Below are positions 6,899-35,991 of a DNA stretch of 64,000 bases, one piece after another; position 1 is the first letter of the stretch; each line of letters starts with the position of its first letter. The stretch is taken from positions 7,516-71,515 of the forward strand of contig JAKFEW010000058.1 in assembly GCA_036675505.1 (NCBI GenBank), written 5' to 3'. The stretch comes from Candidatus Sericytochromatia bacterium. Its GTDB lineage: Bacteria; Cyanobacteriota; Sericytochromatia; S15B-MN24; JAQBPE01. The notes below the pieces were generated by a model, which was given only the letters and a program-made list of their open reading frames with translations, did no database searches and was not told where the DNA came from. Both the position numbers and the translations under genes were made by a program.

Positions 6899-6935
6899 GC
6901 CCCTTCCCCAGGTGGGTTAGTGGAAGGGGTGTGGC
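6899..6935. repeat. Degenerate/truncated copy of the 45-bp TIR repeat (ccccttccccaGGTGGGTTaGTGGaaGGGGtg)
   Basis: Aligns to the repeat family found at 11428, 26305, 26420, 36807 and 43579 with an internal deletion. It sits at the boundary between the high-GC region and the low-GC island. Confidence 0.4.
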
Positions 6936-7218
6936 CAAAGCGCGCAATACCCAAGATACCCTCGCATCAGCCGCCTGATTGGCGTAGCGGCGTTCTTGGT
7001 CTCGCTTGATTCGGAATAATTTGAACACGTCGGTCTCGGCGGTGGCGCAAGACCGGATCTGCATGGTGCCTGGGCGGGCATCTGCCCAGGCCGACCCGAC
7101 CGCACTACTCCATGCCAACGAACAGCAAGTGGCCCTCAGGAAGCCCGTGGCCTCGGTCAGTCCGAATCCACGCGCCGGCTCCCATAGACCACTGAGGCCA
7201 CCAGATTTTAAGGAGTCG

Positions 7219-7662
7219 TCATTCCGATCGCGCGAGCGCGACGGGGATCGCTGCCACAAGGTCTTCCAGTCGATCGGGAACAACTAGGTTCTCGGCCGGA
7301 GTGAATTTGAAGCCCTCGCGTGCGCCGGCATTCCGGGTGGGTGTGAGCGTAATAGCGCCGTCGGCCAGAATGAGATCTACGTATCGTGTGCCCTTCATGA
7401 AGGTCGCCCAGGACTTTACGTTTGCCGCGTCGAGCACTGGCTGGAACAAGATCTTGTACTGCTCCTGCGACGGTTGAGGCGCATCGTAAACCGAAGCCGA
7501 GAGGGCCTCACGGACCTTCGATGCGATGGTAATCGCATCTACTGCCCCCTCCTCGATGACCATTACAGGGACACCAGAAACCCAGATTCCCTTGGTCGTT
7601 CGATGATTCGGGAGGATGAAAAGGAATGATCCTCGTTGGTAAAGCGATGCGCCTTTTTTCAT
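7219..7662 (-). CDS. Hypothetical protein (147 aa) in the low-GC island
   Basis: ORF with ATG at 7662. It lies 10 nt downstream of the preceding gene's stop. No recognisable family. Confidence 0.4.
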   Translation of the reverse strand: MKKGASLYQRGSFLFILPNHRTTKGIWVSGVPVMVIEEGAVDAITIASKVREALSASVYDAPQPSQEQYKILFQPVLDAANVKSWATFMKGTRYVDLILADGAITLTPTRNAGAREGFKFTPAENLVVPDRLEDLVAAIPVALARSE

Positions 7663-7671
7663 TTTTCGCCT

Positions 7672-8235
7672 CTACGGGAAAACAAAGAACCGAACCGTGA
7701 CACCTAGTCGCGCTGCTTCCTGGATCGCTTGATTGACCACTAATTGTTGCTCAGCACTGGGTATCCTGGGAATTGCGATGTCGAGAGCGCGTCCTGTGAT
7801 TTCACTTGGTTGCACGATCACACCCTTCCAGGCCCGGCCTTCGAACTTTGCGATCGCGTTGATCTGCTTCGCCAACTCGCTCTTCAACTTTGATGGTATC
7901 TGATAGCTGGCCGCATTGAGATCCATCGTCTTGATGCTCGTCGCTATGCCATCCTCCATTCGGTCGATGACCGGGAAGTCGAACGGAAGGTGTGGGGATC
8001 GCCCCAGCGCTTCTTCGATTAGCCTGCCGCGTTCGAGCGGGGGAAGCCCCCAAACGCTGGGCGAGAGACCATGGCCACCTGGCGTCGTAACACCACATGC
8101 CTTTTTTGCGATTCGATCGCGGAACGACGGCGGAATCAGGTCTGCGGCGGCCTTCATTACGAACGGCGCGCCTGCGACAATGATCTTGCCCGCCGCGTAG
8201 CCAGCAGCCAATTCGGCGGCGTCCTGCGGCGTCAT
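7672..8235 (-). CDS. Hypothetical protein (187 aa) in the low-GC island; possibly toxin-like, speculative
   Basis: ATG at 8235 overlaps the stop of the upstream gene by 1 nt (TAATG). No family recognised by eye. Confidence 0.4.
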   Translation of the reverse strand: MTPQDAAELAAGYAAGKIIVAGAPFVMKAAADLIPPSFRDRIAKKACGVTTPGGHGLSPSVWGLPPLERGRLIEEALGRSPHLPFDFPVIDRMEDGIATSIKTMDLNAASYQIPSKLKSELAKQINAIAKFEGRAWKGVIVQPSEITGRALDIAIPRIPSAEQQLVVNQAIQEAARLGVTVRFFVFP

Positions 8236-8783
8236 TAGGAGTACTTGAAGGGCGGGTCGTAGGGTACGGCCTGCAACTTGTAGCCCTGAGCCGCCGGCGT
8301 TGACTCAGCCTGCCGGTAGACGTCCTGCTCGAGCGCATAGATGCTGACAGGGTCGTCGTTCTCCAGGTAGACCCATCCCTCAGGAGTACTGACTGCCAAC
8401 GAGGTGCTGGGGTCGACGCCGGCGCCGTTCAGCGAGGCGGTTGATTGGGACATCTCGAAGGCCTTCAGGTCTACGAGGTCGTCAACCCCATCAGCGCCTA
8501 GCTCGGGCCAGTCGGCGGCCAGTGCATCCCAGACGCTCTGGGAGACGCTCATCAACTTCCGCTTCGGCGCGACAGTAGCTACTGCCTGAAAGGGCGCCTG
8601 CTGTGCCGTCGGTGAAAAACCAGCTTGGCGGTCAGGATGGGCTGCTGACATGAAAGCAACGCCATCGCAAGGAGCAAGGACGTTCCCCGGGAAAACATCC
8701 GGCATGAGGACATGAGCTTTGCTCCATTGTGAAACATCGGTTTTCCCTTGCCGCCGCAGCGGCTCAATTGTCTTCCCCAGCAT
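8235..8783 (-). CDS. Hypothetical protein (182 aa; an acidic C-terminal half) in the low-GC island
   Basis: ATG at 8783. Downstream-coupled to 7672..8235. Start uncertain; an internal Met (MSVSQ…) is also possible. Confidence 0.35.
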   Translation of the reverse strand: MLGKTIEPLRRQGKTDVSQWSKAHVLMPDVFPGNVLAPCDGVAFMSAAHPDRQAGFSPTAQQAPFQAVATVAPKRKLMSVSQSVWDALAADWPELGADGVDDLVDLKAFEMSQSTASLNGAGVDPSTSLAVSTPEGWVYLENDDPVSIYALEQDVYRQAESTPAAQGYKLQAVPYDPPFKYS

Positions 8784-8823
8784 GCCCTTACTCGGCGTAC
8801 CTCAAACCCTTGCTCGGTTAACG

Positions 8824-8853
8824 ATTGTAAACATGCGGACAGAGTGCATTTAA
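8824..8853 (-). promoter_or_regulatory. Candidate sigma70-type promoter for the island operon (-35 TTAAAT, 18-nt spacer, -10 TACAAT on the minus strand)
   Basis: AT-rich stretch 8800-8870 between the megasynthase stop and the island genes. Hexamers read directly from the sequence. Confidence 0.25.
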
Positions 8854-8974
8854 TGCGAGTTATCCGACCATGTCCTCTGCGAATTCCCGGCCCCAGCTGC
8901 CCGCCGCGAGAGCGCGCGGGAGTCGACGACTCGACGGCGGCATAGAAAAGGCCGATCTGCCCCCGCGGCGAGCC

Positions 8975-17520
<8,546 letters not shown>

Positions 17521-17524
<4 letters not shown>

Positions 17525-20500
17525 AGCGTGAACTCCTCGAACTCGGCGTCCTCGCCGGCAGGCGGCAGGAAGGTCCAATCGGCCGCGACGTCGGCCGCCG
17601 CAGCGCCGCCCAGCAGCGCCAGCGCCAGCACGTGGCGCGGGCCGAGCGCGAGGTCCGGCGCCACGCGGCCGAAGTCCATCGCGCCGACGGCGCACAGGCC
17701 GAGCCCGGCCGGCGGTGCGGCTTCGCGCAGGATCTGGGCGATCGCGCCGGCCTCGAGCAGCGCGAGGTCGCGGGCGGCCTCGCCGTAGACCGGGGCGATC
17801 GCGTCGAGGTCGCCGATGAGGTAGATGGCGAAGGCCGCGCCGTCGGCGATCGCCCGGTTCATGAAAACATGCACGTCGGGATCGAAGGCCGCGCCCGGCC
17901 GGATCGGCACGAGGCGATGGTCGTCGGGGTGGTGGTAATACGTGCCGCCCGGCAGGTCCGTCACGGCGTCGGGCCTGACCTGCAGGTGGACCTGGACGGG
18001 GTAGAGCGCGCCCGCGGAGCCGTAGCGGAGCTTCGGACGCCCGTCGACGGTCTCGGCGCGCAGGCCGGCGAGCAGCGCGCCGATCGCCGAGAGCGAGATC
18101 GGGCCGGGCCCGAAGACCCGGGCGCTGTGGCCTGTGTGCGCGGAGGCGTCGCCCGCGAGCTGGACGGGCGGCCCGGCCTGCGCCAGCGTGCGCAGCCCGG
18201 GCCTGGCGTTCTTGAAGGCCTCGCGCTCGGCGGGGTCGAGCAGGATCCGCGGCCCGGTCGGGCGCGGCGCGCCGCCGCCGTGCGCCGCATACCAGGCGGC
18301 GACCGCCTCGATGGTCCGCATCCCGAGCAGCTCGGCCATCGCGGGCCGGGCACCCAGATCCTCCTCGAGCCGGTTGGCGAGCCGCACCAGCTCAATCGAG
18401 GCGACGCCGAGCGCGAGCAGGTCGGCGCGCGGGTCGAGGCTCGGCAGGCCGAGGGCCTCCGCGGCCATGGCGGCGAGGCGGGTGACGAGGGCCGGGTCGG
18501 CGGCGGGGTCTGCCGCCTGGGAAGGCGTGGCGGTGGTCTCGGCGAGGGTGGTGAGCGCGCGCCGGTCGACCTTGCCGTTGGGGGTGAGGGGCAGGGCGTC
18601 GAGGGCGTGGAGGGAGGTGGGGACGAGGGCCTCGGGCAGCCGGGCGGCCAGCCACGCCAGCACCCCTTCCCCCTCCGGGTGCCCGACGACGAACGCCACC
18701 AGGCGGCGGGCATGCCGATCCCCCACCGCCACCACCGCCGCCTCGCGCACCGCCGGGTGCCCCGCGAGCGCCGCCTCGATCTCCCCGAGCTCGATCCGCA
18801 CGCCGCGGACCTTCACCTGGTCGTCCTCGCGCCCCAGGAACTCGATCACCACGCCGTCGCCGGCCGGCGCCGGCCGCCAACGGCCGCGATCGCCCGTGCG
18901 GTAGCGCCGCTCGCCGCTCTCGGCGTCGACCACGAACGCCGCGGCGGTCCGCGCCGGATCCCGCCAATACCCTTCGGCCACGCCAGCACCGCCGATGTAG
19001 AGGTCCCCCTCGGCCCACAGCGGCCGGCTCCGGCCGCGCTCATCGCGCACATGGAAAGCCTGGTTCGCCATCGGCCGGCCATACGGCACGCTCGTCCAGC
19101 CGGGCGCGGGCTCACCCGCGTCCTCGCGGATCGACCAGATCGCGGCCTCGGTCGCGCCGCCCAGCGCGACCACGCGGCAGCCGGGCGCATGCGCGCGGAT
19201 GCGGCCCGGCATGTCGACCGGCACCCAGTCGCCGCTCAGCATCGCCGCGCGCAGGCCGGCCGGGAAGGCGTCCGCGCGGCCCTCGGCGTGCGCGAGCAGC
19301 ATCGCCATGAGCGGGGGCGCCGAGTTCCAGACCGTCACCCGGCCCTCGGCCATGCGGGCGGCCCAGGCCGCCGGCTCGCGCGCCTCGCCGGGCGCGAGCG
19401 TCACCACCGCTGCGCCTGCGGCGAGCGGCCCGAAGACGTCCCAGACGGCGAGGTCGAAGCCGGGCGCCGAGAGGGCCAACACGCGGTCCGCGGGGCCGAG
19501 CCCGAGGTCGGCGTTCACGTCAACGATGGTGTTCGCGGCCGCGCGCTGCGCGACGACCACGCCCTTGGGCTCGCCGGTGGAGCCTGAGGTGAAGACGACA
19601 TAGGCCGGCGCCGCCGGCGCGGGGCCCTGCGGCAATGGCACCTCCGCCGCGCCCGCCGCGAGCGCCAGCGGCGCGACGTCCATGACCTCCGCGAGCAGCC
19701 CCTCATCGCCCGCCCGCACCACCGCGGCGCCGGCGCCGGCCAGCGCGAGCAGCTGGGCCCGGCGGGCGGGCGGGGCGGCCGGATCGATCGGCACCCATGG
19801 CACGCCGGCGAGCGACGCGGCGAGGACGCCCACGACGGGCTCCCAGCCGCGATCGACGAGCAGGGCCACCGGCCGGCCGGGGCCGAGGCCGGCGGCGCCC
19901 AGGCGGGCGGCCAGCGCCGACGCCTCGGCACGTAGCGTCGCGTAGTCGAGCGTGCGATCCGGCGCGATCACGGCTGGGGCGTCCGGCCGTTCGGCGGCGC
20001 GGGCCAGGAAGGCCATGTGCAGGGTCTGGGCCGGCATCGGCGCGGCGGTCGAATTGGCGGCGGCGATCGCCCGCGCGTCCGCCGCAGGCAGCGCCACGGC
20101 CACCGGCCGCTCCCAGGTCGCCTCCGGCGCCGCCAGGCCGGTGAGCACGGCGTCGTACGCCGCCGCCAGCGCGTCGAGCACGCCCGGCGCCAGGTGGCCG
20201 TCCACGGCGTCCCAGTGCCACGCGAGCCCGCCTGCCAGCTGCATGACCTGGTGGTCGAGCACCACCTGCGGCGTCTGCGTCAGGGCATGGACCAGCTCGC
20301 CGCCGAGCGGCGACGCCCCCAGGTCGCCCTGATCGAGCACCGAGGTGAACACGACGGGGAAGGCCGCCGGCTCGCCGCGCTGGCGGGCCCATTCGCGCAT
20401 CACCCAGAGGCCACCGGCGTCGGCGTGATCGAGGTCTTCCCAGAGCCGGGCCTGGACCGTGCGGCAGCGCGCGCCGAAGCCGAGGACCTCGGCGTGGTCC

Positions 20501-23500
20501 AGCGCGAGCGGCGTCAGCGTCGTGAAGTCGCCCACCACGCGCTCGACGTCCGGGTGCAACGGGAGGCGTCTGAACGTGGGCAGGTTGAGCGTGAAGGCCG
20601 GCCGCCGCGCCCAGGCCGCGAGCACCTCGCCGAAGGCCGCCAGCACGGCGGCGGTCGGCGAGACGTCATATTCGGCCGCGCGCTCGCGGAAGCGCGCCCA
20701 GGCGTCCGGCGTCAGGCCGCCCGACCGGCGCACGAAGGTGGGCCGGCCGTCCGGCGGCGTCGGCGCGAGCGGCAGCTCGGGCGCTTCCGGCAGCGCGGGC
20801 AGGCGCATGCGCCACCAGTCGCGCGCGGCGGTGACGGCGGCGGCGCCGCTCGCCTCGCGGGCCGCGTCGGCCAGGACGTAGTCGCGGAAGGCGAGGGTCG
20901 GCGCGGATCCCAGCTCCGCGCGCGGATCGCGGTACAGGGCGTCGAGCTCGCGCGCCAGGATGCCCAGGCTCGCCGCGTCGGCCACCAGGGCGTCGAGGCC
21001 GAGGTGCAGCCGCACCACCTCGTCCGGCAGGCGGCTCGCGCGCAGCGCCAGCAGCGGCCAGCGGTCGGCCGGGCGCACCTCATGGGACCATTCCGACCGC
21101 CGATCCGCGAGCGCCTTCGCGCGGTCCGCAGGCGCCAACGGCCGGAGGTCGGCCTCCTCGAGCGGGAACGGCGGGACCGCGGGGAGCACGCGTTGGCGGC
21201 CCCGATCGTCCACCACCGCGCGCAGCATGGGGTGGCGCGCGACGAGCGCGTCAACGGCCGTGCGCAGGCGCTGGAGATCGAGGCCGGGCACGTCGAGCTC
21301 GACGTAGGCGTGCGCGGCGACGCCGCCGCCCGTGAGGCTCGCGTCGCGGCCGACCCAGTAGGCCGCTTGCACGGGCGTGAGCGGGAAGGGCTGATGGGCG
21401 GCGGCCGGATCGGGCAGGAGCGCGACCGCCGCCGCCGCGGGGGCGCTCGCGATCGCCCGCGCCATCCCGGCGACGGTGGGGTCGGCGAAGACGGCCGCGA
21501 GCGGCAGCTCGACGCCGAAGCGATCGCGGACGCGGGTGATCAGGCGCCAGGCGAGGAGCGAATGGCCGCCGAGGGCGAAGAAGCTCGCGCGCCGCCCGAC
21601 GACGGGCACACCGAGGACGTCGGCCCAGAGCGCCTCGACCGCGGCTTCGCGATCGTCCACGGGCTGCTCGACGCCGGCCGGGGCCGGCGGCTCGGGAAGG
21701 GCCCGGCGGTCCACCTTGCCGGCGGAAGAGAGCGGGAGGGCGGTGAGGAGGACGAGCGCGGCGGGGACCATGGCGGCGGGCAGCTGCGCGGCGAGCCACG
21801 GCAAGATCTCTTCCGCGTCCCCCGCAAGAGCGGCCGGAACCTCCGCGCCGGAGGTGGCGAGCGGGTGCAGGACGACGTAGGCCACCAGGCGCTCGGGGTC
21901 GCCCTTCGCCGCCACCGCGCATGCCGCGACGGCCGGATGCGACGCGAGCACCCCCTCGACCTCGCCCGGCTCCACGCGCACGCCGCGCACCTGAACCTGC
22001 GCGTCCACGCGCCCCAGGAACGCCAGCGCCCCGTCCGGCAGCCGGCGCGCGCGATCGCCCGTCCGGTACCACCGCCCGTCGCCCGGCAATTCCACGAAGC
22101 GCGCCGCGGTGAGCGCCTCGTCGCGCCAGTAGCCGAGCGCGACGCCGGCACCGCCGACCCACAGCTCGCCCGGCGCCCCGGCGGGCACCGCGCGGCCGGC
22201 GGCGTCGGCCACCCGCACACGGACGCCCGCGATCGCCCGGCCGATCGCCGGGGCCCCGGCGCCGGCGGCCACTACGTTCCCGGCGGTCGCCTCGTCCCCG
22301 GCGGCCGCCACGTCCCCGGCGGTCGCGACCACCGCGGCCTCGGTCGGGCCATAGTGGTTCACCACGCGGAAAGGCAGGCCCTGTGCCGGCCTGCGGTTCA
22401 GGCGATCGCCCCCCGTCAGCAGCGCGCGCAGCCGCCCGCCCGTCGGCCATGCCAGGCCCAGCACGTGCTCCGCCAGCGCCGTCGGCAAGAAGGCCACCGC
22501 GATCGCGTTCGCCACCAGCCAGGCCGGCCAGGCGTCCGGGTCGGTCGCCGCCGGATCGGGCGCCACCACGAGCGTCGCGCCGGCCGCGAGGGCCGGCCAG
22601 ATCTCCCAGACCGACGCGTCGAAGCCGGGGCTCGCCACCAGCGCCACGCGATCGCCCGCGGCCAGCCCGTAGGCGGCCAGGTGCCAGCCCACCAGGTTGG
22701 CGCGCCCGCCGGCGGAGACCACGACGCCCTTGGGTCGTCCTGTCGAGCCGGAGGTGAAGATCAAGTAGGCAGGTGCCGCCGGCGCCCAGGCGGCATCGCA
22801 GGCCGCCACCACCGAGCCCGCCGGCCCGTCGTGCCAGGCCGCGCGCAATTCAATCACGGGCCCGGCCAGCGCGACCTCGCCGGCCACCAGCGCCACCGGC
22901 GCGCCGAGGTCGGTCGCCATCGCGGCGAGCCGCGCGGCGGGCTGAGCCGGGTCGAGCGGGGCGGCGATCGCGCCCGCGATCGCCGTCGCCAGGTGCGCGA
23001 GCACGAGCTCGGCCGAGCGCGGCGCCACGATCGCGACCGGCACGCCAGGCCCGGCGCCGGCGGCGACGAGCCGGCCCGCGAGCGCGCCTGCCCGGGCGAG
23101 CAGGTCGCCGTAGGTCCAGGTCGTATCGCCGTCCACCACCGCCGGCGCGTCGGCCGGCGCCGCCCGCACGCCCGCCAGCAGGTCGATCGCGGGTGGCGCG
23201 GGCGCCGCGTCCTCGGCCTCGGCCGGCCCCAGCGCGAGGGCACCGAGGGGCGTGTCGGGCGCGTTCGCTCCCGCCGCGAGGACGTGCGTGAATTGGTCCA
23301 TCAGCGCCCGCACGGTCGCGGGCTCCCAGAGCGCCGCGTCGTACTCGGCGATCAGGCGCACGCCGGCGTCGGTCTCGTGCAGGCCGAAGGCGAGATCGAA
23401 CCGCGCGGTGCCCGGGTCCACCTCGACCGGCTCGGCGACCAGCCCGGCCACGACCGGCGCCCGCAGGGGCGCATGCCAGGCGAAGGCCACCTGGAACAGC

Positions 23501-26500
23501 GGCGACGACGCGAGGTCGCGCACCGGCGCGAGCGCCTCGACCAGCCGCTCGAAGGGCACGTCCTGGTTGGCCATCGCGTCGAGCAGGGTCCGTCGCACGC
23601 GTGCGGCCAGCTCGCCGAACGTCGGGTCGCCGGCGAGGTCGCCGCGCACCACCAGCATGTTGAGGAAGCACCCGATCAGCGGCTCGAGGCCGGGGTGGTG
23701 GCGGCCGGAGATCGGCGTGCCGACACAGAGGTCGTCCTGCCCGCTCCAGCGCCCGAGCACCGTCAAGAAGGCCGTGAGCGCGACCATGAAGCGCGTGGCG
23801 CCGGTGGTCCGCCCGAAGGTGTCGGCCGCCGCGACCGCAGCCGGCGGCAGCCAGGCGGCGAGGGTCGCCCCGCGGCCGGTCCGGGCGGCCGGGCGCGGAT
23901 GATCGGTCGGCAACGCGAGGCGGGCCGGCGCGCCGGCCAGCCGCTCGCGCCAATAGGCGAGCTGCGCGTCGAGCGCGGGCGCCTCCCGCGTGGCCTGCTG
24001 CCAGATCGCGTAATCGGCGTACTGCAGCGGCAGTGCCGGCAGCGCGGTCGGATCGCCCACGGGGTAAAGCGCCGCGAGCTCGTGCATCAACACGGCGAGC
24101 GACCAGCCGTCGCCGATCGCGTGGTGGAGCGTGACGCCGAGCAGGTGCTCCTCGGGCGTAAGGCGGATCAAGCTGGCGCGGAACAGCGGGCCCGCCGCGA
24201 GATCGAAGGGCCGGCTGGCTTCGGCGACCAGCCGGGCGCGTGCTTCAGCCTCCGCGACGTCGGCGGGCAGCGCCGCCAGGTCGAGCAGCGGCAGCGGCAG
24301 CGCCGCAGGCGGCGCGATCGCCTGCACCGGCCCGTCCGGCCCCTCGGGCAGCGACGTGCGCAGCGCCTCGTGGCGTGCCGTGATCGCGTCGAGCGTGCGG
24401 CCGAGCGCCACGCGGTCCAGCGGCCCGCGCAGCCGCATCGCGCCCGCCACCTGGTAGCCGGCCGCCCCGGGGGCCAGGCGCTCGAGGAACCACATCCGCC
24501 GCTGCGCGAACGAAGCCGGCACCACCGCGGGGCGGGGCGTCGCGGCCGTCGGCGGCGGCAAGGCCTCGCCGGCCGCCGCCAGCCGGTCCGCGATCTCGCC
24601 GGCGAGCCGGGCCAGGCTCGGCCCCTCGAGCAACAACGCCATCGGCAGCGCCACGCCGAGGTCGCGCCGCACCCGGTTGTTCAGCTCCATGCCCACGAGC
24701 GATCCGACGCCCAGCGTGGTGAGCGGGGCCTCAGGGTCGAGCTTCACCGCCGCCACGTCGAGCAGCCGGCCGAGCTCGCGCGTGAGGGCGTCGCGCAAGG
24801 CCGCGAGCCGCTCGGCACGCGGCAGCGCCCGCAACGCGGCGGCGTCGAGGCCAGGGGAGGGGACATCGAGGCCAGGGACATCGAGGCCGGGGATCCCGCC
24901 ACCGGCACCCGAGCCGGGACCCGACGCGGGGACCACGCGCTCGCCGATCGGCGCGGCGCCCAACGCCCGCAGCGGCGCCGCGGGGCGCTCTTCGAGCCAG
25001 TGGCGCTCTCGGCGCCAGGGATAGGTGGGCAGGTGAACGTGTTCCCCGGCCGGCACGAGCGCGTCCCAGTCGATCACAGCCCCCAACGCCCACAGCGCGC
25101 CGGCCGCCTCGCGCGCCGCGAGCGGCTCGGCGCGGTCCCGGCGGAGCACGCCGATCACGTCCGGCGGCGCGCCGCGCTCGGCGAGCACGTCCGCGACCGC
25201 CGGGGCGAGCGCGGGGTGGGCGGAGAGCTCGAGCACGATCGGCGCTTTTTCGGCGGCGGCGATCGCCGCGACCGCCTCGGCGAGCCGCACCGGCCGGCGC
25301 ATGTTGGCCCACCAGTAGGCCGCGTCGAGCGGGCCTGCGAGCCGCCCGCCGATGACGGTCGACCACATGGGCAGCACCGGCGGCCGCGGCACCACATCCG
25401 CGAGCGCCGCGAGCAGGTCCTCGCGCAGCGGCTCCACGACGGGGCTGTGCGAGGCGACCAGCGTGCCGCGCACCAGCCGGGCGAAGCCGCCCTGCTCCTC
25501 GACCGCGGCGACCACGGCCTCGAGCGCCGCCTGCTCGCCGGCAAGCAGCGTCTGGCGGGGGCCGTTCACGGCGGCGATCCAGGCGCGGTCGGCGTGGGGG
25601 GCGATCGCCGCCAGCGCCTCGGCCTCGGACAAGGCCACGGCCGCCACGGTGCCCGCGCCGGCCATCGTCTGCATGATCCGCGCCCGCCGCGCGACCACGC
25701 GGCAGGCGTCGTCGAGCGTGAGGCCGCCGGCCGCCCAGGCCGCGGCGATCTCGCCGAGGCTGCCGCCCACCACGGCGGTCGGCGTCACGCCCCAGCTGCG
25801 CAGGAGCGCGGTGAGGCCGACCTGGAGAGCGAATTGCAGGGGCTGGGCGACGTCACCGCGCTGCCAGCGTGCGTCGCCGCCGTCCGAAGCCATCGCGTCG
25901 AGCAACGACCAGGCACCCAGCTCCCCCTCGGCGAGGAAGGGGGCGATCGCCGCATCCACCTCGGCCACGGCCGCGCGGAACGCCGGCTCGGCCAGCAGCT
26001 CGCGACCCATCCCGGCGCGCTGGGCGCCCATGCCGGGATAGAGGAACACGATCGGCCGGGCGCGGCCGGCCGCGCGGGCGAAGCCCGTGGGATCCGCGTC
26101 CGCCACGTCCGCGAGGCGCGCGAGCAGGCCATCGCGGTCGGCGGCGGCGATCGCGCGGCGGATCGGCAGGTGGGCACGGCGGCGCAGGGCCGTGTGGCAG
26201 ACGTCGGCGGGGACGAGGGCAGGGTCGGCCGCGAGGGCGGCGTGCAGGCGGCGGGCGAGGGCGGCCAGGGCCGCGGGGTCGCGGGCGGAGAGGGGCAGCA
26301 CCAGCACCCTTTCCCTCTCCGGGTGGGTTCGTGGGGGGGCTGGAAATGGGGAGAGGTCCCCGCAGGGGGGTGAGGGGGCTCTCGGCGCCTGGAAAGCCTC
26401 CCCACACCCACTCCGTGGGAGCTCCCCTCCTTTCCAGCCGCCCCACGAACCCACCCCGGGAGCAAAAGGGTGCTCCAGGATCACATGGCAATTCGTCCCC

Positions 26501-27810
26501 GCGAACCCGAACGCGCTGACGCCCGCCACCCGCGGCCCCGCGGGCCAGGGCCCGGCCTCCTGCTGCAAGGCCAGCCCCAGCGCCTCGAACGCGATCCGCC
26601 CGCTCGGCGGGTCCCCATGCAACGTCGCCGGAATCACCCCGTGCCGCAGCGCCAGCGCCGCCTTGATCAGCCCCGCCACGCCGGCGGCCGCCTCCAGGTG
26701 GCCCAGGTTGCTCTTCACGGCGCCCAGCCGCAGCGCCCGGTCGGCCGGACGGCCCGTGCCCAACACGGCCCCCAGCGCGGCCGCCTCGATCGGGTCGCCG
26801 AGCGGCGTGCCCGTGCCATGCGCCTCCACGTACGCCAAGTCGCCGGTCGCCACGCCCGCGTCGCGGCAGGCCGCCGCGAGCAGCGCCCGCTGGCCAGCCG
26901 GGTTCGGCGCGGTGATGCCGTTGGTCCGGCCGTCCTGGTTGATCGCGCCGCCGCGCACCACCGCGTAGACGTCGTCGCCGTCGGCGCGGGCCTGCGCCAG
27001 CGGTTTCAAAACCACGATGCCCACGCCCTCGCCGCGCACCATGCCGTCCGCCCCTTCGCCGAACGCGGCGCAGCGGCCGGCCGGCGAGGTGGCCAGGGCC
27101 TGGGCGAAGCCGATGTGCAGCGCCGGCGAGAGGATCACGTTGACGCCGCCCGCGAGCGCGAGCGTGCACTCGCCGGACCAGATCGCCCGGCAGGCCGTGA
27201 GCACCGCCACCAGCGACGCCGAGCACGCCGTGTCGAGCACCAGGCTCGGCCCGCGCAGGTCGAGGTGGTAGGAGATGCGGTTGGCGATCGCGCAGGCCGC
27301 CGCGCCCGCGTTCGTGTGCATATCGACAGCGTCCGGGTCGCGCAGCGCCCGCTGGGCGTAGTCCGCGCTCGCGACGCCCATGAAGACCCCGGCCGCGCTG
27401 CCCGAGAGCGCATCCAGCGCCACGCCCGCATCCTCCAGCGCCTCGACGGCCACCTCGAGCGCGAGCCGCTGCTGCGGGTCCATCGCCGCCGCCTCGCCGG
27501 GCGAGATGCCGAAGTAGCGCGCGTCGAACAGGTCGACGCGGTCCAGGAAGCCGCCCCGTGGGCTGTTCGTCCGCCCCGGCATCGCCGGCCGCGGGTCGTA
27601 CAGCGCGCCCTGATCCCAGCGATCCGCCGGCACCTCGCCGACCGCGTCGCGGCCCTCGACGAGCAGCTGCCAGAACGCCGCGGGGCCGTCCGCGCCCGGG
27701 AAGCGGCAGCCGATCCCGACGATCGCGATCGGCTCCCGGCCATACACCTCGGACTCCCGCCCGGTCACGGCCGGATCCAGTCCCGCCTCGGCAGGCTCGC
27801 GCGCGCTCAC
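17521..27810 (-). CDS. Hybrid PKS-NRPS megasynthase 1: KS-AT-ACP, C-A-PCP, Cy-A(Cys)-PCP-Ox (3429 aa)
   Basis: GTG at 27810 overlaps the TGA of the LLM gene. Motifs: DTACSAS + HGTGT (KS), GGSLGE + VASHS (AT), GVGSL (ACP), HHAIGDGWS (C), [12 protein letters not shown] (A), [10 protein letters not shown] (PCP), [14 protein letters not shown] + DALVADAAS (Cy, DxxxxDxxS), [12 protein letters not shown] + FDLAVWD (A), a C-terminal McbC/nitroreductase-like FMN oxidase. Confidence 0.9.
17524..18258 (-). other. C-terminal FMN-dependent oxidase (Ox) domain, McbC/SagB/nitroreductase-like; predicted thiazoline to thiazole
   Basis: About 245 aa after PCP2. [26 protein letters not shown] and [10 protein letters not shown] resemble Ox domains of thiazole-forming NRPS (EpoB/MtaD/BlmIII type). 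Acidic C-terminal tail [10 protein letters not shown] may be a docking peptide. Confidence 0.6.
18286..18498 (-). other. PCP domain 2, megasynthase 1
   Basis: [23 protein letters not shown] (variant GxxS carrier motif). Confidence 0.5.
18541..20013 (-). other. Adenylation domain 2 (Cys-type), megasynthase 1
   Basis: [24 protein letters not shown] (the FDLSVYD block typical of Cy-module A domains). [12 protein letters not shown] gives I330 W331 as in the Cys code [43 protein letters not shown]. Confidence 0.65.
20041..21390 (-). other. Heterocyclization (Cy) domain, megasynthase 1
   Basis: N-terminal [15 protein letters not shown]. Core [16 protein letters not shown] (DxxxxDxxS in place of HHxxxDG). 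Confidence 0.7.
21436..21663 (-). other. PCP domain 1, megasynthase 1
   Basis: [17 protein letters not shown]. Confidence 0.7.
21691..23178 (-). other. Adenylation domain 1, megasynthase 1; specificity undetermined, D235 A236 W239 … V330 V331 looks Glu/Gln-like and is not committed
   Basis: [80 protein letters not shown]. Confidence 0.6.
23221..24528 (-). other. Condensation domain, megasynthase 1
   Basis: [12 protein letters not shown]…HHAIGDGWS. Confidence 0.7.
24586..24813 (-). other. ACP domain, megasynthase 1
   Basis: [24 protein letters not shown] (Ser in the GVGSL context). Confidence 0.55.
25171..26055 (-). other. Acyltransferase domain, megasynthase 1; variant active site GGSLG instead of GHSxG; VASH motif suggests a (2S)-methylmalonyl-type extender
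   Basis: [38 protein letters not shown]. Confidence 0.6.
26305..26476. mobile_element. MITE-like composite repeat (about 172 bp) bounded by inverted copies of the 45-bp TIR, inserted in-frame in the KS-AT linker of megasynthase 1 (aa ~448-502)
   Basis: Forward TIR 26306-26357 (caccctttccctctccGGGTGGGTTCGTGGGGGGGCTGGAAAtgggg). Inverted TIR 26420-26472 (…ccagccgCCCCACGAACCCACCCCgggagcaaaagggtgctc). The internal segment shares ggagaggtcCCCGCAGGGGGGTGAGGGGGcTCTC with the element at 43579. Translated as [53 protein letters not shown] with no stop. Confidence 0.6.
26470..27732 (-). other. Ketosynthase domain, megasynthase 1 (condensing, Cys present)
   Basis: [49 protein letters not shown]. Ends …[11 protein letters not shown] at aa 447. 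Confidence 0.75.
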
Positions 27811-29045
27811 GGCGTGACCCCCCAGGTGCGGGCCAGGCGGTCGATGCGGCCCAGGCTCGCGAGCACCTCATCGAGCCCGAGGCCCCAATCGACCAGGCAG
27901 CCGATTTCGTCGACGCCCGCGGCATGCAACCGCGCCGCCATCGCGCGGCCGTCGGCCTCGTCGCCCAGCAGCGCCGAGCCCGCCCACCAGCGCTCGAAGG
28001 CGTGATCCAGCAGGGCCTCGCGGTCCGCAGCCGGCAGGGCGGAAAGGTCGAGCGTCGCGCCGAGCGCGGCCGCCAAGGGCCCGAGCAGCTCGAGCGAGCC
28101 GCCCAGGTATTGCAGGAATGGCGCGCGCACATAGGCCTTGGTCGCCTCGCGTTCAGGCCCGAGGTAGGCGTGCACCATGGCGGTGACCCGGCCGGGCCCC
28201 GCGTGGCCGGCCGCCGCGCGCGCGGCCCGGTAGCGCGCGATCTTCGCGCCGAGCTCGTCGACCGACTGGCCGAGCAAGCAGGTCAGCACGTTCACGCCTT
28301 CCGCGCCCGCGGCCTCGAAGGTGGCCGGGTTGCCCATGGCCGTCAGCCAGGTCGGCAGCTCGGCAGTGAGCGGCCGCGGTCGGGTGCGCACGGCGATCTC
28401 GGCCCCCGCACCGTTGCGCCGCCGCAGGGCGTCGCCGCGCCACAGCGCGCGCACCTCGGCCATGCCCGCGAGCGCGGCCTCGCGCCGGTCGGCGTACCGG
28501 TCCGGGGCGAAGACGAAGTCGTCGGCGTGCCAGCCCGCGGCGAAGGCCAGGCCCACGCGGCCGCCGGCGAGCCGGTCGACCATCGCCCACTCCTCGGCGA
28601 CCCGCAGCGAATCGTGCAGCGCCGGCACCACCGAGCCCGCGCGCAGGGCCACACGGGTGGTGCGCGTGGCGATCGCCGCCGCCGCGACCGCCGGGTTCGG
28701 GAAGAGCCCGCCGAGCGCGTGGAAGTGCCGCTCCGGCAGCCAGACGGCCTCGAAGGCGTGCCTGTCCGCGAACTCGGCCGCGGCCAGCATGAACGCGTAG
28801 CCGCCGTCCGCGGCCTCCTCGTCGGCGGAGAAGAAGAACACGCTGAACGTCGGGCCGGTCGCGGCCGCGGCCGGCGCCTGGCGTCCGATCAGCGCCACCA
28901 GCTCGTCCTTGTGAGCGGCGAGCGCCGCGCGCAACGTCTCGTCGAGGGCCCCGCGCGGGGCGCTCAACCGCAACGCGCCGTCCTCCAGCGCCACGCGCGC
29001 GCCGCGCAGCGCGAGCTGGGCCAACAGCGCCTCGGCCCCGGTCAT
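27807..29045 (-). CDS. Stand-alone luciferase-like monooxygenase (LLM, bacterial luciferase/flavin-dependent oxidoreductase family) with an N-terminal TubC-like docking domain
   Basis: ATG at 29045 (MTGAEALLAQ…). N-terminus EALLAQLALRGARVALEDGALRLSAPRGALDETLRAALAAHKDELVALI parallels the docking domain of megasynthase 2. LLM core TFSVFFFSADEE…AFEAVWLPERHF…GRVGLAFAAGWH. Its stop overlaps the GTG start of megasynthase 1. Confidence 0.8.
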   Translation of the reverse strand: MTGAEALLAQLALRGARVALEDGALRLSAPRGALDETLRAALAAHKDELVALIGRQAPAAAATGPTFSVFFFSADEEAADGGYAFMLAAAEFADRHAFEAVWLPERHFHALGGLFPNPAVAAAAIATRTTRVALRAGSVVPALHDSLRVAEEWAMVDRLAGGRVGLAFAAGWHADDFVFAPDRYADRREAALAGMAEVRALWRGDALRRRNGAGAEIAVRTRPRPLTAELPTWLTAMGNPATFEAAGAEGVNVLTCLLGQSVDELGAKIARYRAARAAAGHAGPGRVTAMVHAYLGPEREATKAYVRAPFLQYLGGSLELLGPLAAALGATLDLSALPAADREALLDHAFERWWAGSALLGDEADGRAMAARLHAAGVDEIGCLVDWGLGLDEVLASLGRIDRLARTWGVTP

Positions 29046-29064
29046 GCCCCTGCCTCCGCTGCCG

Positions 29065-29300
29065 TCACGCGCCGGCCCCCGCGAGGTGGTCGGCGAGCCG
29101 CCGCGGGGTCGGGAACTCCCAGAGCAGCGTCGGGTCGAGCCGCCGCCCCAGCAGCTCCTCGAGCTCGCCGGAGATCGCGACGGCCTCGAGCGAGCCGAGG
29201 CCGAGCTCCGCGAACGGCGCTTCCGCATCCACCGCCTGCACGGCCAGGCTCATTTCGGCCGCGACGCGGGCCACCAGCCAATCCTCGAGCTCGGCGGCGG

Positions 29301-29304
<4 letters not shown>
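29065..29304 (-). CDS. Stand-alone acyl carrier protein
   Basis: 79 aa. LGLGSLEAVAISGELEELLG carrier motif. GTG start overlaps the FAAL stop (GTGA). Confidence 0.75.
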
Positions 29305-31013
<1,709 letters not shown>

Positions 31014-31824: not shown

Positions 31825-32054
31825 TGCGGACCTCCTGTGTCCTAGGACACTATTTCCATCGGCGTTGTCGGGGACGACTTGATGCCGAGTCGAAAATTTA
31901 TTTTCCGTGCGGGTCTTCTTGGGTCCATCTTCGCGCAGTCGGCTGACACGGGTGCTGACACGCGGCTGTGATCCTTCGGTCGGTTTCATGTCATCCGACG
32001 AGCGAACGGCCGGTTCGGTTCCCTCGGTCGGGCGAGCGGGAATACCAATGGCGC

Positions 32055-33605
32055 ATGCCCGATCAGACCCCCCAAGCCCGCCTCGCCGCCCTCGAAGCCG
32101 CCCGAACCCGGGCGGCGGCCGGGATGGGCCCCGAGGCGATCGCCAGGCAGCACGCGCGCGGCAAGCAGACCGCGCGCGAGCGCGTCGAGGGCCTGCTCGA
32201 CCCCGGCAGCTTCATCGAGCTCGATCGCTACCGCGTCCACCGCAGCCACGACTTCGGCCTCGCCGACAAGCGCATCCCCGGCGACGGCGTGATCACGGGC
32301 CAGGGGTTGATCGCAGGCCGCCTCGTCTATATCTTCGCCCACGACTTCACGGTCTTCGGCGGCAGCCTCGGCGAGGTCTACGCCGAGAAGATCTGCAAGG
32401 TGCAGGACGCCGCCTACCGCGACGGCGCGCCCTGCATCGGCCTCTACGACTCGGGCGGGGCGCGGATCCAGGAGGGCATCGAGGCGCTCTCGGGCTACGT
32501 CGACGTCTGCTTCCGCAACGTGCGCAACTCGGGCGTGATTCCCCAGATCACCGCGATCATGGGCCCCTGCGCGGGCGGCGCCGTCTACTCCACCTCGCTG
32601 TCCGACTTCACGATCATGGTGCGCGGCACGAGCTACATGTACGTGACCGGCCCGGACGTCGTGAAGACGGTGCTGCACGAGGAAGCCACGCACGAGGAGC
32701 TGGGCGGCGCGGACGTGCACGACGCGATCACGGGCGTGGCGTCGCTGGTCGTGGACGACGACGACGCGGCGCTCGCCGCGATCCGCGCGCTGCTCGCGCT
32801 GCTGCCGTCCAACAACCTCACCGACGCGCCCGTCGTGTCCTGCGACGACCCGGCCGACCGGCGGGAAGACGCCCTGCTCGCTCTCATGCCGGACCGCGCG
32901 TCGGTCCCGCTCGACATGCCCGCGCTCGTCCGCCTGGTCGTCGACGACGGCGCGCTCTTCGAGCTGCAGCCGGGCTACGCGCCCAACCTCCTTACGGCCT
33001 TCGCGCGCCTCGACGGCCACACCGTGGGCGTCGTGGCGAACGACGCGCGCCACCTGGCGGGCACGCTCGACATCGCGGCCTCGCTCAAGGCCAGCCGTTT
33101 CGTGCGCTTCTGCGATGCCTTCAACGTGCCGATCGTGACCTTCGTCGACACGCCGGGCTACTTCCCGGGCAAGGACCAGGAGTATGGCGGCATCATCCGG
33201 CACGGCGCCAAGCTGGCCTACGCCTATTGCGAGGCCACGGTGCCCAAGCTGACGGTCGTCGTGCGCAAGGCCTACGGCGGCGCCTACGGCTCGATGGGCG
33301 CGAAGAACACCCAGGTGGACGCCTGTGTGGCCTGGCCGACGGCCGAGATCGCGGTGCTGGGCGCTGAGAGCGCGGCCAGCGTGCTCTACCGGCGCGAGCT
33401 CGCCGAGGCGCCGGAGCGGCGCGAGGAGCTGCTCGAGGCCTACCGCGCGCGCTTCGCGACGCCCTGGCAGGCCGCCGAGCATGGCTACGTCGACGACGTG
33501 ATCGATCCGCGCGATACGCGCCCGTACTTGATCCGGACGCTGGCCACGCTCAGGCGGAAGCGCGTGGAAACCCCGCCGCGCAAGCACTCATCGATGCCGC
33601 TTTAG
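32055..33605 (+). CDS. pccB: Acyl-CoA carboxylase carboxyltransferase beta subunit (propionyl-CoA carboxylase / methylmalonyl-CoA carboxyltransferase family)
   Basis: 516 aa from ATG at 32055. QGLIAGRLVYIFAHDFTVFGGSLGEV…GPCAGGAVYS…carboxyltransferase fold. Likely supplies (methyl)malonyl-CoA extender for the adjacent PKS. Confidence 0.85.
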   Translation: MPDQTPQARLAALEAARTRAAAGMGPEAIARQHARGKQTARERVEGLLDPGSFIELDRYRVHRSHDFGLADKRIPGDGVITGQGLIAGRLVYIFAHDFTVFGGSLGEVYAEKICKVQDAAYRDGAPCIGLYDSGGARIQEGIEALSGYVDVCFRNVRNSGVIPQITAIMGPCAGGAVYSTSLSDFTIMVRGTSYMYVTGPDVVKTVLHEEATHEELGGADVHDAITGVASLVVDDDDAALAAIRALLALLPSNNLTDAPVVSCDDPADRREDALLALMPDRASVPLDMPALVRLVVDDGALFELQPGYAPNLLTAFARLDGHTVGVVANDARHLAGTLDIAASLKASRFVRFCDAFNVPIVTFVDTPGYFPGKDQEYGGIIRHGAKLAYAYCEATVPKLTVVVRKAYGGAYGSMGAKNTQVDACVAWPTAEIAVLGAESAASVLYRRELAEAPERREELLEAYRARFATPWQAAEHGYVDDVIDPRDTRPYLIRTLATLRRKRVETPPRKHSSMPL

Positions 33606-34522: not shown

Positions 34523-35245
34523 TTAACAGTCATCGCACACGGCGGCTGGCAGCGTCCAGGGCTGCACGACGAGCGCGTCGTCGCGCACGGCGACCGCGCC
34601 CGTGACGTCCGGCGCGAGGGTCAGGTCGGCGATCGCCCAGTGCCGCCCGTCCAGCGCCACGACCCGCGTCCCCGGCGGCCCCACGCCCACCTCGGCGGTG
34701 GTGGGCTCGATCGCGAGGCCGCCGCCATGCGCCTTGAGCAGCGCCTCCTTGCGCGTCCAGGCCCGGAAGAAGGCGGGCAGGCGGTCGGCCGACGCCAGGT
34801 CCTGCCAGGCGGCATGCTCGCTCGGGCCCAACGTGTGCGCCGCGAGCGACGCGAGGTCGGGGAGCTCGCGCCGCGGCTCGACGTCCACGCCCACCGGCGG
34901 CCCGGCGGTGAACGCCACCAGCGCCCAGTCGCCCGCATGGCTCAGGCTGAACGGCAGCCCGCCGCCCGCGAGCCGCGGCTTGCCGCCGGGCGCGACCTGA
35001 AAGGCCAGGGCGTCGGGATCACGGTCCTCGTAGGCGGCGAGCAGCGCGCGCAACGCGCGGCGCGCGGCGACCCAACGCCTGCGATCGGGCGCGAAGTGGA
35101 AGGCCGCGGCGCGCGCACGCTCGGCCTCGTCCAGCCAGCCGAGCGGCGGCTCGACCTCGAGGGCGAGCGCCACGCGCCAGACATGCACCTCACCGGTCAT
35201 GATCGGGGGCGGCGGCCAGGCCGCTGGCCAGTCGGCGCGGCTCAT
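34523..35245 (-). CDS. Sfp-type 4'-phosphopantetheinyl transferase
   Basis: 240 aa from ATG at 35245, which overlaps the TE II stop (ATGA). Motifs FSLSHAGDWALVA, VGVDVE, WTRKEALLKAHG. Confidence 0.85.
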   Translation of the reverse strand: MSRADWPAAWPPPPIMTGEVHVWRVALALEVEPPLGWLDEAERARAAAFHFAPDRRRWVAARRALRALLAAYEDRDPDALAFQVAPGGKPRLAGGGLPFSLSHAGDWALVAFTAGPPVGVDVEPRRELPDLASLAAHTLGPSEHAAWQDLASADRLPAFFRAWTRKEALLKAHGGGLAIEPTTAEVGVGPPGTRVVALDGRHWAIADLTLAPDVTGAVAVRDDALVVQPWTLPAAVCDDC

Positions 35246-35991
35246 GGCCGATCCGGGCCGAGCAGGGCGGCGATCGCCTCGACGACCGCCGGCGCGGCGC
35301 CGCCCGCGAAGGGGAAGAAGTGATCGCCGGGGAAAAGCGCGCAGGTGAACGGGCCCCGCGTGACGGCCGCCCATTCGCCCATCTCGCCATGAGGCGCCGC
35401 CCGATCCGCGAGGCCCGCGAGCGCGGTCACGGGGAGCGCGAGCTGTGCGGGCGCGTGGTCCACGTAGGTCGCCGCGAGCTTGAAATCCGCGCGCAGCACG
35501 GGCATCACCAGCGCCATGATCTCCTCGCTCGCGAGCACCGCGGCCGGCGTGCCCCCCAGCAGGCGCAGGCGCTCGGCGATCGCGGCATCCGGCATCGCGT
35601 CCGGGTCGTCCCAGCGCACGCGTGCAGGCGGGCGACAGCCCGACACCACCAGCGCCTGCGGCCCCCCCGCGTGGCGTCGCGCGCGGGCGAGCTCGAGCGC
35701 CGCCAGCGCGCCGAGGCTGTGGCCCCACAGCGTGTAGGGCGCGTCGGCCAGCGCATCCAGGGCCTCGCAGGCGCCGGCCAGCCAGGCCGGCCAGTCGCGC
35801 ACCGGCGGCTCCGCGAGCCGGGCCTCACGACCGGGCGGCGTCAGCACCCACAGCTCCGCGCGGCCCAGGAGCGCAGCGGCCCAGGGGCGGTAGGGGATCG
35901 CGCCTGCGCCGGCGTGCGGCGCGACGACCAGCCGCGGCAGATCAGGGCGCGCCGCGCTGAGCCGCCGGATCCATCGCCCCGCGGAGGCCAC
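35242..35991 (-). CDS. Type II (editing) thioesterase
   Basis: 249 aa. GHSLGALAALE nucleophile elbow. alpha/beta hydrolase. C-terminal His (GDHFF). Confidence 0.85.
   Translation of the reverse strand: MASAGRWIRRLSAARPDLPRLVVAPHAGAGAIPYRPWAAALLGRAELWVLTPPGREARLAEPPVRDWPAWLAGACEALDALADAPYTLWGHSLGALAALELARARRHAGGPQALVVSGCRPPARVRWDDPDAMPDAAIAERLRLLGGTPAAVLASEEIMALVMPVLRADFKLAATYVDHAPAQLALPVTALAGLADRAAPHGEMGEWAAVTRGPFTCALFPGDHFFPFAGGAAPAVVEAIAALLGPDRP

Follow-up and report, generated by a model that had tools for sequence, protein, structure and literature searches.

A luciferase-like monooxygenase with a docking head, probably clipped onto a lipopeptide assembly line to oxidise its enzyme-bound fatty starter

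Introduction

The 64,000-nucleotide stretch of contig JAKFEW010000058.1 analysed here, which we call the window, comes from a Candidatus Sericytochromatia bacterium and encodes a lipopeptide assembly line that has a free-standing luciferase-like monooxygenase (LLM) among its subunits. The LLM gene lies between those of a starter acyl carrier protein (ACP) and the first ketosynthase (KS), and the N-terminus of its product resembles a docking domain. What would a flavin monooxygenase do at the start of such a line, on what would it act, and to what would it dock? We argue that this protein, the bHD-LLM (an LLM headed by a beta-hairpin docking domain, bHD), is probably clipped onto the line and there oxidises the enzyme-bound fatty starter. 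The reaction, the substrate carrier and the docking partner are inferred from domain content, predicted fold, gene order, natural fusions and the distribution of docking motifs.

Results

The gene encodes a docking head, a linker and a catalytic core, and a short spacer separates it from the ACP gene upstream:

27807..29045, minus strand: whole bHD-LLM gene, 412 aa plus stop (ATG at 29045, TGA at 27809-27807)
28890..29039, minus strand: TubC-type bHD, residues 3-52, from Pfam, PDB matches and AlphaFold
28848..28889, minus strand: Ala/Pro-rich flexible linker, residues 53-66, where model confidence (pLDDT) falls under 50 at residues 57-61 and the homologue alignment shows variation and gaps
27834..28847, minus strand: luciferase-like flavin monooxygenase core (TIM barrel), residues 67-404, from TIGR04020, PDB 6KET and Foldseek
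29046..29064, minus strand: ACP-LLM spacer of 19 nt, read directly from the sequence, in which GGAGG is the LLM ribosome-binding site

Both halves of the protein are recognised by profile searches of the kind that the initial annotation of the window had proposed. Pfam TubC_N (PF18563) covers residues 6-52 (E=9e-11; 42.2 bits against a gathering cutoff of 26) and Bac_luciferase covers residues 71-378 (E=1e-30). The N-terminal 64 residues also match solved bHDs, namely those of TubC (2JUG), Bamb_5915 (6CGO), EpoB (5T7Z) and the halogenase AerJ (8AQQ). On profile matches and the structural model, the N-terminus belongs to the TubC_N, or bHD, family, as the initial annotation had suggested. Its parallel with the N-terminus of megasynthase 2, the second large synthetase of the line, also holds: the two are 54% identical over 41 residues (BLASTP, E=1e-8), and megasynthase 2 itself carries TubC_N (E=2e-15).

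An AlphaFold2 model built on 11 homologues (mean pLDDT 83.7) predicts the bHD fold, with a helix at residues 3-13, strands at 17-21 and 24-28, and helices at 36-44 and 46-61, at pLDDT 78-87, followed by a low-confidence linker and then a TIM barrel. A merely disordered leader, which the initial annotation had allowed for, is not what the model predicts for residues 3-61, and the docking domain is joined to the catalytic domain by a flexible linker at residues 53-66. The bHD is kept in homologues down to 36% overall identity (range 36-91%), and its residues L11, L25, P30, G32, L38, K46 and L49 are conserved as overall identity falls from 91% to 43%.

By sequence and by model, the core belongs to the MupA/Atu3671 family of flavin mononucleotide (FMN)-dependent LLMs: TIGR04020 scores 430 bits against a cutoff of 244.45, over model positions 1-340 of 341 (NCBIfam). 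The closest solved structure is 6KET, the oxygenase (OX) domain of PuwE, both by sequence (E=6e-91 over 338 residues) and by Foldseek with the LLM model (E=9e-37, TM 0.88, 41% identity); luciferases and other LLMs rank next. The ERHF active-site motif (E105-R106-H107-F108) is invariant in the homologue alignment, and 90% or more of the sequences keep H109. Because this invariant family motif is retained, the LLM should be catalytically active.

Could the docking head instead be a non-functional fission remnant of a nonribosomal peptide synthetase (NRPS) module with an embedded monooxygenase, or the protein a structural adaptor and not a catalyst? Most members of the LLM family do sit inside NRPS modules, many of which start with TubC_N, and a part in forming an inter-module interface has been suggested for MupA (PMC10952193). 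We nevertheless regard this explanation as very improbable, given the bHD residues conserved from 91% to 43% identity, a domain that AlphaFold2 folds confidently and the invariant motifs of the catalytic core.

What is known of the core's relatives bears on the reaction. MupA, the free-standing namesake of TIGR04020, hydroxylates the alpha-carbon of beta-ketoacyl-ACP in vitro, and its activity requires both the ACP-bound thioester and the beta-keto group; OocM behaves alike (PMC10952193). The puwainaphycin line starts from a separate fatty acyl-AMP ligase (FAAL), here PuwC, and ACP (PuwD), which precede PuwE, a protein composed of KS, acyltransferase (AT), ACP, aminotransferase, oxygenase, condensation (C), adenylation (A) and thiolation (T) domains. 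PuwE has been proposed to build a 3-amino-2-hydroxy acyl unit, with OX providing the 2-hydroxyl of the FAAL-derived chain (PMC4219810). The oxygenase-domain arrangement of RmyA, from the ralsolamycin pathway, has been described as similar to that of PuwE. In MtaG and MelG (myxothiazol and melithiazol) and in FshJ, a monooxygenase (MOX) domain inserted in an A domain oxygenates the thioester alpha-carbon. We take these MOX domains to be of the same LLM superfamily as the protein of the window, and the loci that we fetched hold similarly A-domain-embedded members of the LLM family. Oxygenation of the alpha-carbon is the chemistry common to MupA, PuwE OX and the MtaG/MelG/FshJ MOX domains, and for that reason it is the reaction that we would assign to the bHD-LLM. 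A flavin reductase gene was not found in the window, and the mupirocin cluster, from which MupA comes, likewise has none (PMC10952193).

The assembly line around the LLM is encoded on the same strand. Besides the domains already named it includes cyclization (Cy), oxidase (Ox), ketoreductase (KR) and thioesterase (TE) domains, and a short linear motif (SLiM) of the kind to which bHDs bind:

29301..31013, minus strand: FAAL, 570 aa, with Pfam AMP-binding (E=3e-67) and a DIP2-like C-terminal domain
29065..29304, minus strand: ACP0, the discrete starter carrier, 79 aa, with Pfam PP-binding (E=2e-14), resembling the N-terminal ACP of Pks13
17521..27810, minus strand: megasynthase 1, 3429 aa, KS-AT-ACP-C-A-T-Cy-A-T-Ox, from Pfam and motif checks
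24577..24798, minus strand: ACP1, carrier of the KR-less first polyketide synthase (PKS) module, megasynthase 1 residues ~1005-1078, the alternative LLM site, on a 3-oxoacyl thioester
17524..17553, minus strand: candidate C-terminal acidic SLiM of megasynthase 1
8975..17524, minus strand: megasynthase 2, 2849 aa, bHD-C-A-T-KS-AT-KR-ACP-TE, with its true start at ATG 17524
17339..17491, minus strand: megasynthase 2 bHD, residues 12-62

Open reading frames (ORFs) and Pfam domains bear out the gene order FAAL-ACP-LLM-KS given in the initial annotation, whose coordinates and strand for the LLM (a minus-strand ORF from ATG 29045 to TGA 27809-27807) were also right. The best NCBIfam matches of the FAAL gene are all FAAL models. 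The accompanying statement that all these genes overlap by start and stop stands for three junctions, each of 4 nt: FAAL/ACP (GTGA), LLM/megasynthase 1 (the TGA of the LLM with a GTG start, GTGA) and megasynthase 1/megasynthase 2 (ATGA). It does not hold for ACP/LLM, where the genes are separated by the 19-nt gap with its Shine-Dalgarno sequence, GGAGG, placed 8 nt before the LLM ATG at 29045. A 473-aa ORF beginning at 29228 was considered as the LLM reading frame and rejected: its 61 extra residues are an Arg/Ser-rich, out-of-frame reading of the ACP gene, homologues begin at the Met of 29045, and a Shine-Dalgarno sequence is present for that start.

The pairing of ACP and bHD-LLM recurs elsewhere. 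An ACP gene immediately precedes the bHD-LLM in seven contexts: the window, two JGI contigs and the loci L003, L004, L121 and L125. The series carboxyltransferase / FAAL - ACP - bHD-LLM - KS-AT-ACP-C-A is found in L003 and in one of the JGI contigs. L003 belongs to a metagenome-assembled genome (MAG) of 74% GC filed as an unclassified cyanobacterium, and its FAAL and carboxyltransferase are 58% and 73% identical to those of the window. The second JGI contig has FAAL - ACP - bHD-LLM and then a large unannotated gene; its upstream gene is unannotated too. In L121, from an organism of 26% GC, ACP - bHD-LLM is divergent from a KS-AT-ACP-C-A-T-Cy-A megasynthase, the locus (SRR22388076_5670133) being covered up to ~200 residues before the megasynthase C-terminus. 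L004 and L125 have ACP - bHD-LLM - bHD-C-A. Finally, in L002 (Chitinivorax sp. B), a bHD-LLM follows a KR-less KS-...-ACP protein in a FAAL/desaturase cluster. This cluster (L002 1343-12622) has a polyyne-like set of FAAL, three fatty-acid desaturases and ACP, then a SLiM-tailed KS-hydrolase-ACP protein, and it continues with the bHD-LLM, a class II aldolase and a thioesterase.

Natural fusions join the same parts covalently. In Nocardia yunnanensis (L124 8298-11341, CP032568) the gene after the FAAL encodes an ACP-LLM fusion (P0045), and next comes a C-starting NRPS of 9441 aa, with no PKS module between the fusion and the NRPS and therefore no beta-keto intermediate there. ACP-LLM fusions are common in Nocardia, and both fusion orders exist across the family, ACP-LLM (P0299) and LLM-ACP (P0198). 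At L128 (5809-10607) a FAAL-ACP didomain is followed by a single bHD-LLM-C protein and then by a TauD-family oxygenase. The didomain ends in ...NAAEVEEIEEFAL; read from its sequences, L128 is a canonical docking pair that would place the LLM on the FAAL-loaded ACP just before condensation. Judged from gene and domain architecture, the LLM family is thus tied to FAAL-loaded starter carriers by three independent arrangements: the Nocardia fusion, L128 and the split form seen in the window. Other members of the family are combined differently. P0128 (L122 / L123 10001-12289) consists of LLM, internal bHD and thioesterase. It comes after an NRPS with ...DDREEVLL at the end of its last peptidyl carrier protein (PCP), and possibly acts in trans as a unit for both hydroxylation and release. 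P0137 joins an MbtH-like domain (PF03621) to an LLM of this family.

What the two natural fusion types and the conserved ACP/bHD-LLM gene pair have in common is the FAAL-loaded acyl-ACP, which makes it the best candidate for a shared substrate. The initial annotation had suggested that a fatty acyl or early intermediate is oxidised in line while bound to a carrier. This reading, still inferred, is well supported by the likeness to PuwE OX, the chemistry of MupA, the recurrent gene pair and the Nocardia and L128 fusions.

If the LLM acts at the start of the line, where does its head bind? The initial annotation had named two candidate tails, those of the starter ACP and of megasynthase 1; a comparison of the tails in the window leaves only the second. 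ACP0 ends ...RRLADHLAGAGA, without a docking motif; among the 37 genes of the window, megasynthase 1 alone has an acidic, hydrophobic-ended C-terminus. This C-terminus matches the tail of the L128 FAAL-ACP (...EVEEIEEFAL) at 7 of 12 positions. Within the fetched loci, proteins directly before bHD synthetases mostly have such acidic and hydrophobic ends (..QEFEEGSL, ..DWEEGVI, ..DWEEGEL, ..DETEIVI, ..TVIEGVL and ..EEIEEFAL). The ACPs before window-type bHD-LLMs end ..HLAGAGA, ..HLAAPC, ..HLASA, ..HLAG and ..FLEINK, which are not docking tails, and the two JGI ACPs, at just 79-80 aa, have no room for one.

The megasynthase 1 tail fits as a candidate SLiM but would have to serve the megasynthase 2 bHD as well. 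Such sharing has precedent, in that one SLiM can recruit several bHD proteins, and SLiMs are known to occur after oxidase domains (PMC9113145), the position that it has here. On the canonical reading, then, the LLM bHD and the megasynthase 2 bHD would share the megasynthase 1 tail. In two of three clusters (the window and L004) the LLM bHD is most similar to the bHD of a co-resident synthetase, although the cases are few. This likeness is suggestive of a shared ligand and would equally fit bHD-bHD pairing. In L004 (1844-3400) the LLM bHD has 65% identity to that of the next NRPS, and the hairpins of both carry a common 4-residue insertion, which suggests that the two were duplicated or co-evolved within the cluster.

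A non-canonical mode strikes us as rather unlikely. In it the LLM bHD would bind the starter ACP itself, tail-less as this is, or would pair with the next subunit's bHD, to which it is nearly identical. If true, the LLM would be indispensable as a bridge from the starter ACP to the first KS or C domain, and a well-studied domain would have a new docking mode.

A shared SLiM at the end of megasynthase 1 also admits late tailoring at the junction of the two megasynthases, with the LLM, like AerJ, competing with megasynthase 2 for the SLiM and modifying the chain on the third carrier (T3) before the C domain. This would follow canonical SLiM-bHD logic, since the only SLiM adjoins T3-Ox and one SLiM can serve several bHDs; a tailoring halogenase provides a solved bHD (8AQQ), and the bHD-LLM-C fusion is a case of an LLM that works on the donor directly ahead of condensation. 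The T3 thioester, however, would be a thiazoline or thiazole carboxylate with no useful alpha C-H once the in-cis Ox has acted, and the conserved ACP-LLM gene pair and the ACP-LLM fusions would be left unexplained. We consider late tailoring improbable.

The A domains bear on a further possibility, release of the MtaG/MelG type, where a terminal glycine is hydroxylated at its alpha-carbon and a primary amide results. Read by hand, their codes are DAWFLGHVVK, DLWNMSLIWK and DFWNIGMVHK; at what we take to be the Stachelhaus positions these would correspond to ~Leu, ~Cys and Thr, with no Gly. The LLM family does include such MOX domains, and P0128, with its LLM, bHD and TE following a SLiM-tailed last PCP, may work in this way. 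In the window, megasynthase 2 has its own TE and the LLM gene is at the start of the line. With no Gly module predicted and a TE present, we rejected MtaG-like amide release, which seems to us scarcely credible.

How widespread is the architecture? A protein identical to the bHD-LLM is found on a 2.9-kb Logan contig. A scan of GTDB representative genomes with a bHD-LLM alignment returned 80 loci and a best match of 57%; among these loci a discrete bHD-LLM occurs only in L007, and there is no close sister cluster. A metagenome scan with the megasynthase 1 C-terminus gave best matches of at most 45% identity, with no bHD-LLM nearby. The bHD-LLM architecture is rare, occurring in 11 to 13 of the best 120 clusters from an index of 5.8 billion proteins. 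An exhaustive scan of 1.84 billion proteins found Pfam TubC_N directly before the LLM in only 2 of the best 150 representatives (P0169 and P0236); nearly all the others have LLM domains embedded in multi-domain synthetases.

Three further genes lie upstream of the assembly-line genes:

31968..33605, plus strand: divergent acyl-CoA carboxyltransferase, Pfam Carboxyl_trans (E=8e-173)
ORF 34523-35728, true start uncertain, minus strand: phosphopantetheinyl transferase, Pfam ACPS (E=1e-13)
35242-35991, minus strand: type II thioesterase, Pfam Thioesterase (E=5e-39)

The carboxyltransferase, which has the same place in L003 and in one JGI contig, possibly supplies an extender unit, and this conserved placement hints at a dedicated supply. 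In AT1 (megasynthase 1 residues 682-788) GGSLGE replaces GHSxGE and a VASH motif is present; by rule of thumb, VASH-type AT motifs are methylmalonyl-like. Megasynthase 1 has the Cy DxxxxD motif and the Ox domain. In megasynthase 2, the carrier after KR (~2516) has a PCP-type motif nearly identical to that of the module's own T domain (~1080), which suggests internal duplication of a carrier. The biosynthetic core (8975-31013) has a GC content of 76-80%, and the flanking genes 62-72%. Directly downstream of the 77% GC cluster is a protein with a CDI-toxin EC869-like nuclease domain (7672-8235, minus strand; PF21111, E=6e-17). Its surroundings (6900-8900) have 62% GC and small flanking ORFs without a Pfam match, and this may be a toxin/immunity islet.

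Discussion

On balance, we think it somewhat probable that the protein is a trans-acting, FMN-dependent LLM, tethered through its bHD to the FAAL-primed line, that oxygenates a carrier-bound acyl thioester at the start of that line. We propose a model where an LLM of the MupA/PuwE-OX type acquired a bHD that would tether it to a FAAL-primed PKS/NRPS line. Its most probable oxygenation would be hydroxylation of the alpha-carbon of the carrier-bound acyl thioester, with reduced flavin coming from a housekeeping reductase. The favoured substrate would be the fatty acyl that the FAAL loads onto the discrete ACP0 encoded immediately upstream, and the second choice a 3-oxoacyl chain carried by ACP1 in the first PKS module, which has no KR. 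The bHD would bind a short acidic C-terminal motif, for which the megasynthase 1 tail is the sole candidate in the cluster. The LLM would then probably be parked on megasynthase 1, on the same complex as KS1, which would consume the cargo of the free ACP0.

Several points weigh against this model. A docking tail on the ACP preceding the bHD-LLM is absent in 7 of 7 contexts, the window included, so that the canonical docking rule points away from the carrier to which gene order points. Docking at the far C-terminus of the 3429-aa megasynthase 1 has no demonstrated geometric link to KS1 or ACP1. The bHD-LLM group is without a characterised member. In a Sericytochromatia MAG of 26% GC the bHD-LLM is an orphan (L007 10001-11209), with no PKS or NRPS within 10 kb; its neighbours there are an EamA transporter gene and molybdenum-cofactor genes. 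A phylogeny of the LLM core groups the N-terminal bHD-LLMs at 29% bootstrap and is poorly resolved; it places P0029, P0236 and P0128 outside this group and does not separate a single origin from several. Lastly, the strict need of MupA for a beta-keto group favours ACP1 over ACP0, and the window, L003, L121 and L002 all have a KR-less KS module.

This last point is the basis of a different assignment, in which the LLM is a MupA-like alpha-hydroxylase acting on ACP1 only. It would hydroxylate C2 of a 3-oxoacyl (possibly 2-methyl-3-oxoacyl) thioester, so that condensation with the first amino acid would produce a 2-hydroxy-3-oxoacyl amide; in logic the line would resemble PuwE and RmyA, minus the aminotransferase and with the oxygenase supplied in trans. 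By analogy with the beta-ketoacyl-ACP requirement of MupA, which OocM shares (PMC10952193), 3-oxoacyl-ACP may be counted as the second substrate candidate, specific to the window, L003, L121 and L002, the four loci in which the KR-less first PKS module is conserved. The nearest structure, PuwE OX, likewise sits behind a KR-less KS-AT-ACP, and the protein that precedes the bHD-LLM in L002 is a KS-...-ACP with a SLiM (...TVIEGVL) on its ACP. In the clusters of L004, L125, the Nocardia fusion and L128, however, the next enzyme starts with a C domain, so that no beta-keto intermediate arises, and ACP1 is internal, with no docking motif adjacent to it; it ends at ~1078, only ~18 residues before the C domain that starts at 1096. 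Action on ACP1 only is in our view unlikely, though it deserves more credit than any other alternative considered here.

Our favoured reading, oxygenation of the acyl chain on ACP0, can be set against described systems. The initial annotation had found no described pathway to match. This holds for the exact arrangement, but close analogues exist in cis (PuwE OX) and in trans (MupA and OocM). PuwE OX (6KET), to which RmyA has a similar domain, is of the same LLM family as the protein of the window and has the same setting, in which FAAL and ACP are separate and supply a KR-less KS-AT-ACP and then C-A-T, all of which the window contains. The alpha-carbon hydroxylation of a lipid-derived chain proposed for PuwE OX is also what we propose for the window LLM. 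The difference is that in PuwE the OX is internal and paired with an aminotransferase, whereas the first PKS module of megasynthase 1 has no KR and no aminotransferase, and the LLM is a separate protein with its own bHD, encoded between ACP and KS. Lacking the internal aminotransferase and oxygenase, the window does not hold a puwainaphycin-type module.

MupA, OocM and CalD, the LLM alpha-hydroxylases of trans-AT PKSs, are free-standing TIGR04020 proteins like the LLM of the window. MupA has no recognisable docking domain and works in a KS0 'alpha-hydroxylation bimodule', whereas the window LLM has a TubC-type bHD. The window has no such trans-AT bimodule: its ATs are in cis, ACP1 is followed directly by C, and KS0 is absent. 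In MtaG and MelG the MOX domains lie inside the A domain of a terminal glycine module and serve an amide-forming release, in contrast to a discrete protein of 412 aa encoded at the initiation end of a line with no predicted Gly.

On the docking side, Bamb_5915 (a C domain of the enacyloxin system), AerJ, and TubC and EpoB, which dock at subunit junctions, have the same N-terminal docking fold and flexible linker as the window LLM. The acidic C-terminal motif of bHD-SLiM systems is present in the window cluster too, but the carrier encoded beside the LLM lacks it. A catalogue of bHD partners in a review lists C, epimerization, Cy, TE, methyltransferase, reductase and halogenase proteins and no flavin monooxygenase (PMC9113145), and we found no description of an LLM with a docking domain in the open-access literature searched. 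The nearest relatives in layout, all uncharacterised, are the Nocardia fusion and L128, where an NRPS is headed, as in the window, by a FAAL, a starter ACP and an LLM from this family. There the LLM is covalently joined to the ACP or to C and no PKS follows, whereas in the window the proteins are separate and the ACP lost, or never had, the motif.

The bHD-LLM is a new combination of two known parts and not a new principle, and the cassette to which it belongs is uncharacterised but recurrent. If our reading is correct, flavin (LLM) monooxygenases would join the enzymes recruited by bHDs, and engineers of assembly lines would in principle have in the bHD-LLM a 'clip-on' hydroxylase that is portable. 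Gene order, which sets the ACP beside the LLM, does not agree with motif position, at the end of megasynthase 1, and this poses a testable question about how free-standing tailoring enzymes are placed. In a broader context, FAAL, ACP and LLM form a recurrent initiation cassette whose split, ACP-fused and C-fused forms are spread over several phyla, and this cassette predicts lipopeptides with an extra oxygen beside the lipid-peptide junction.

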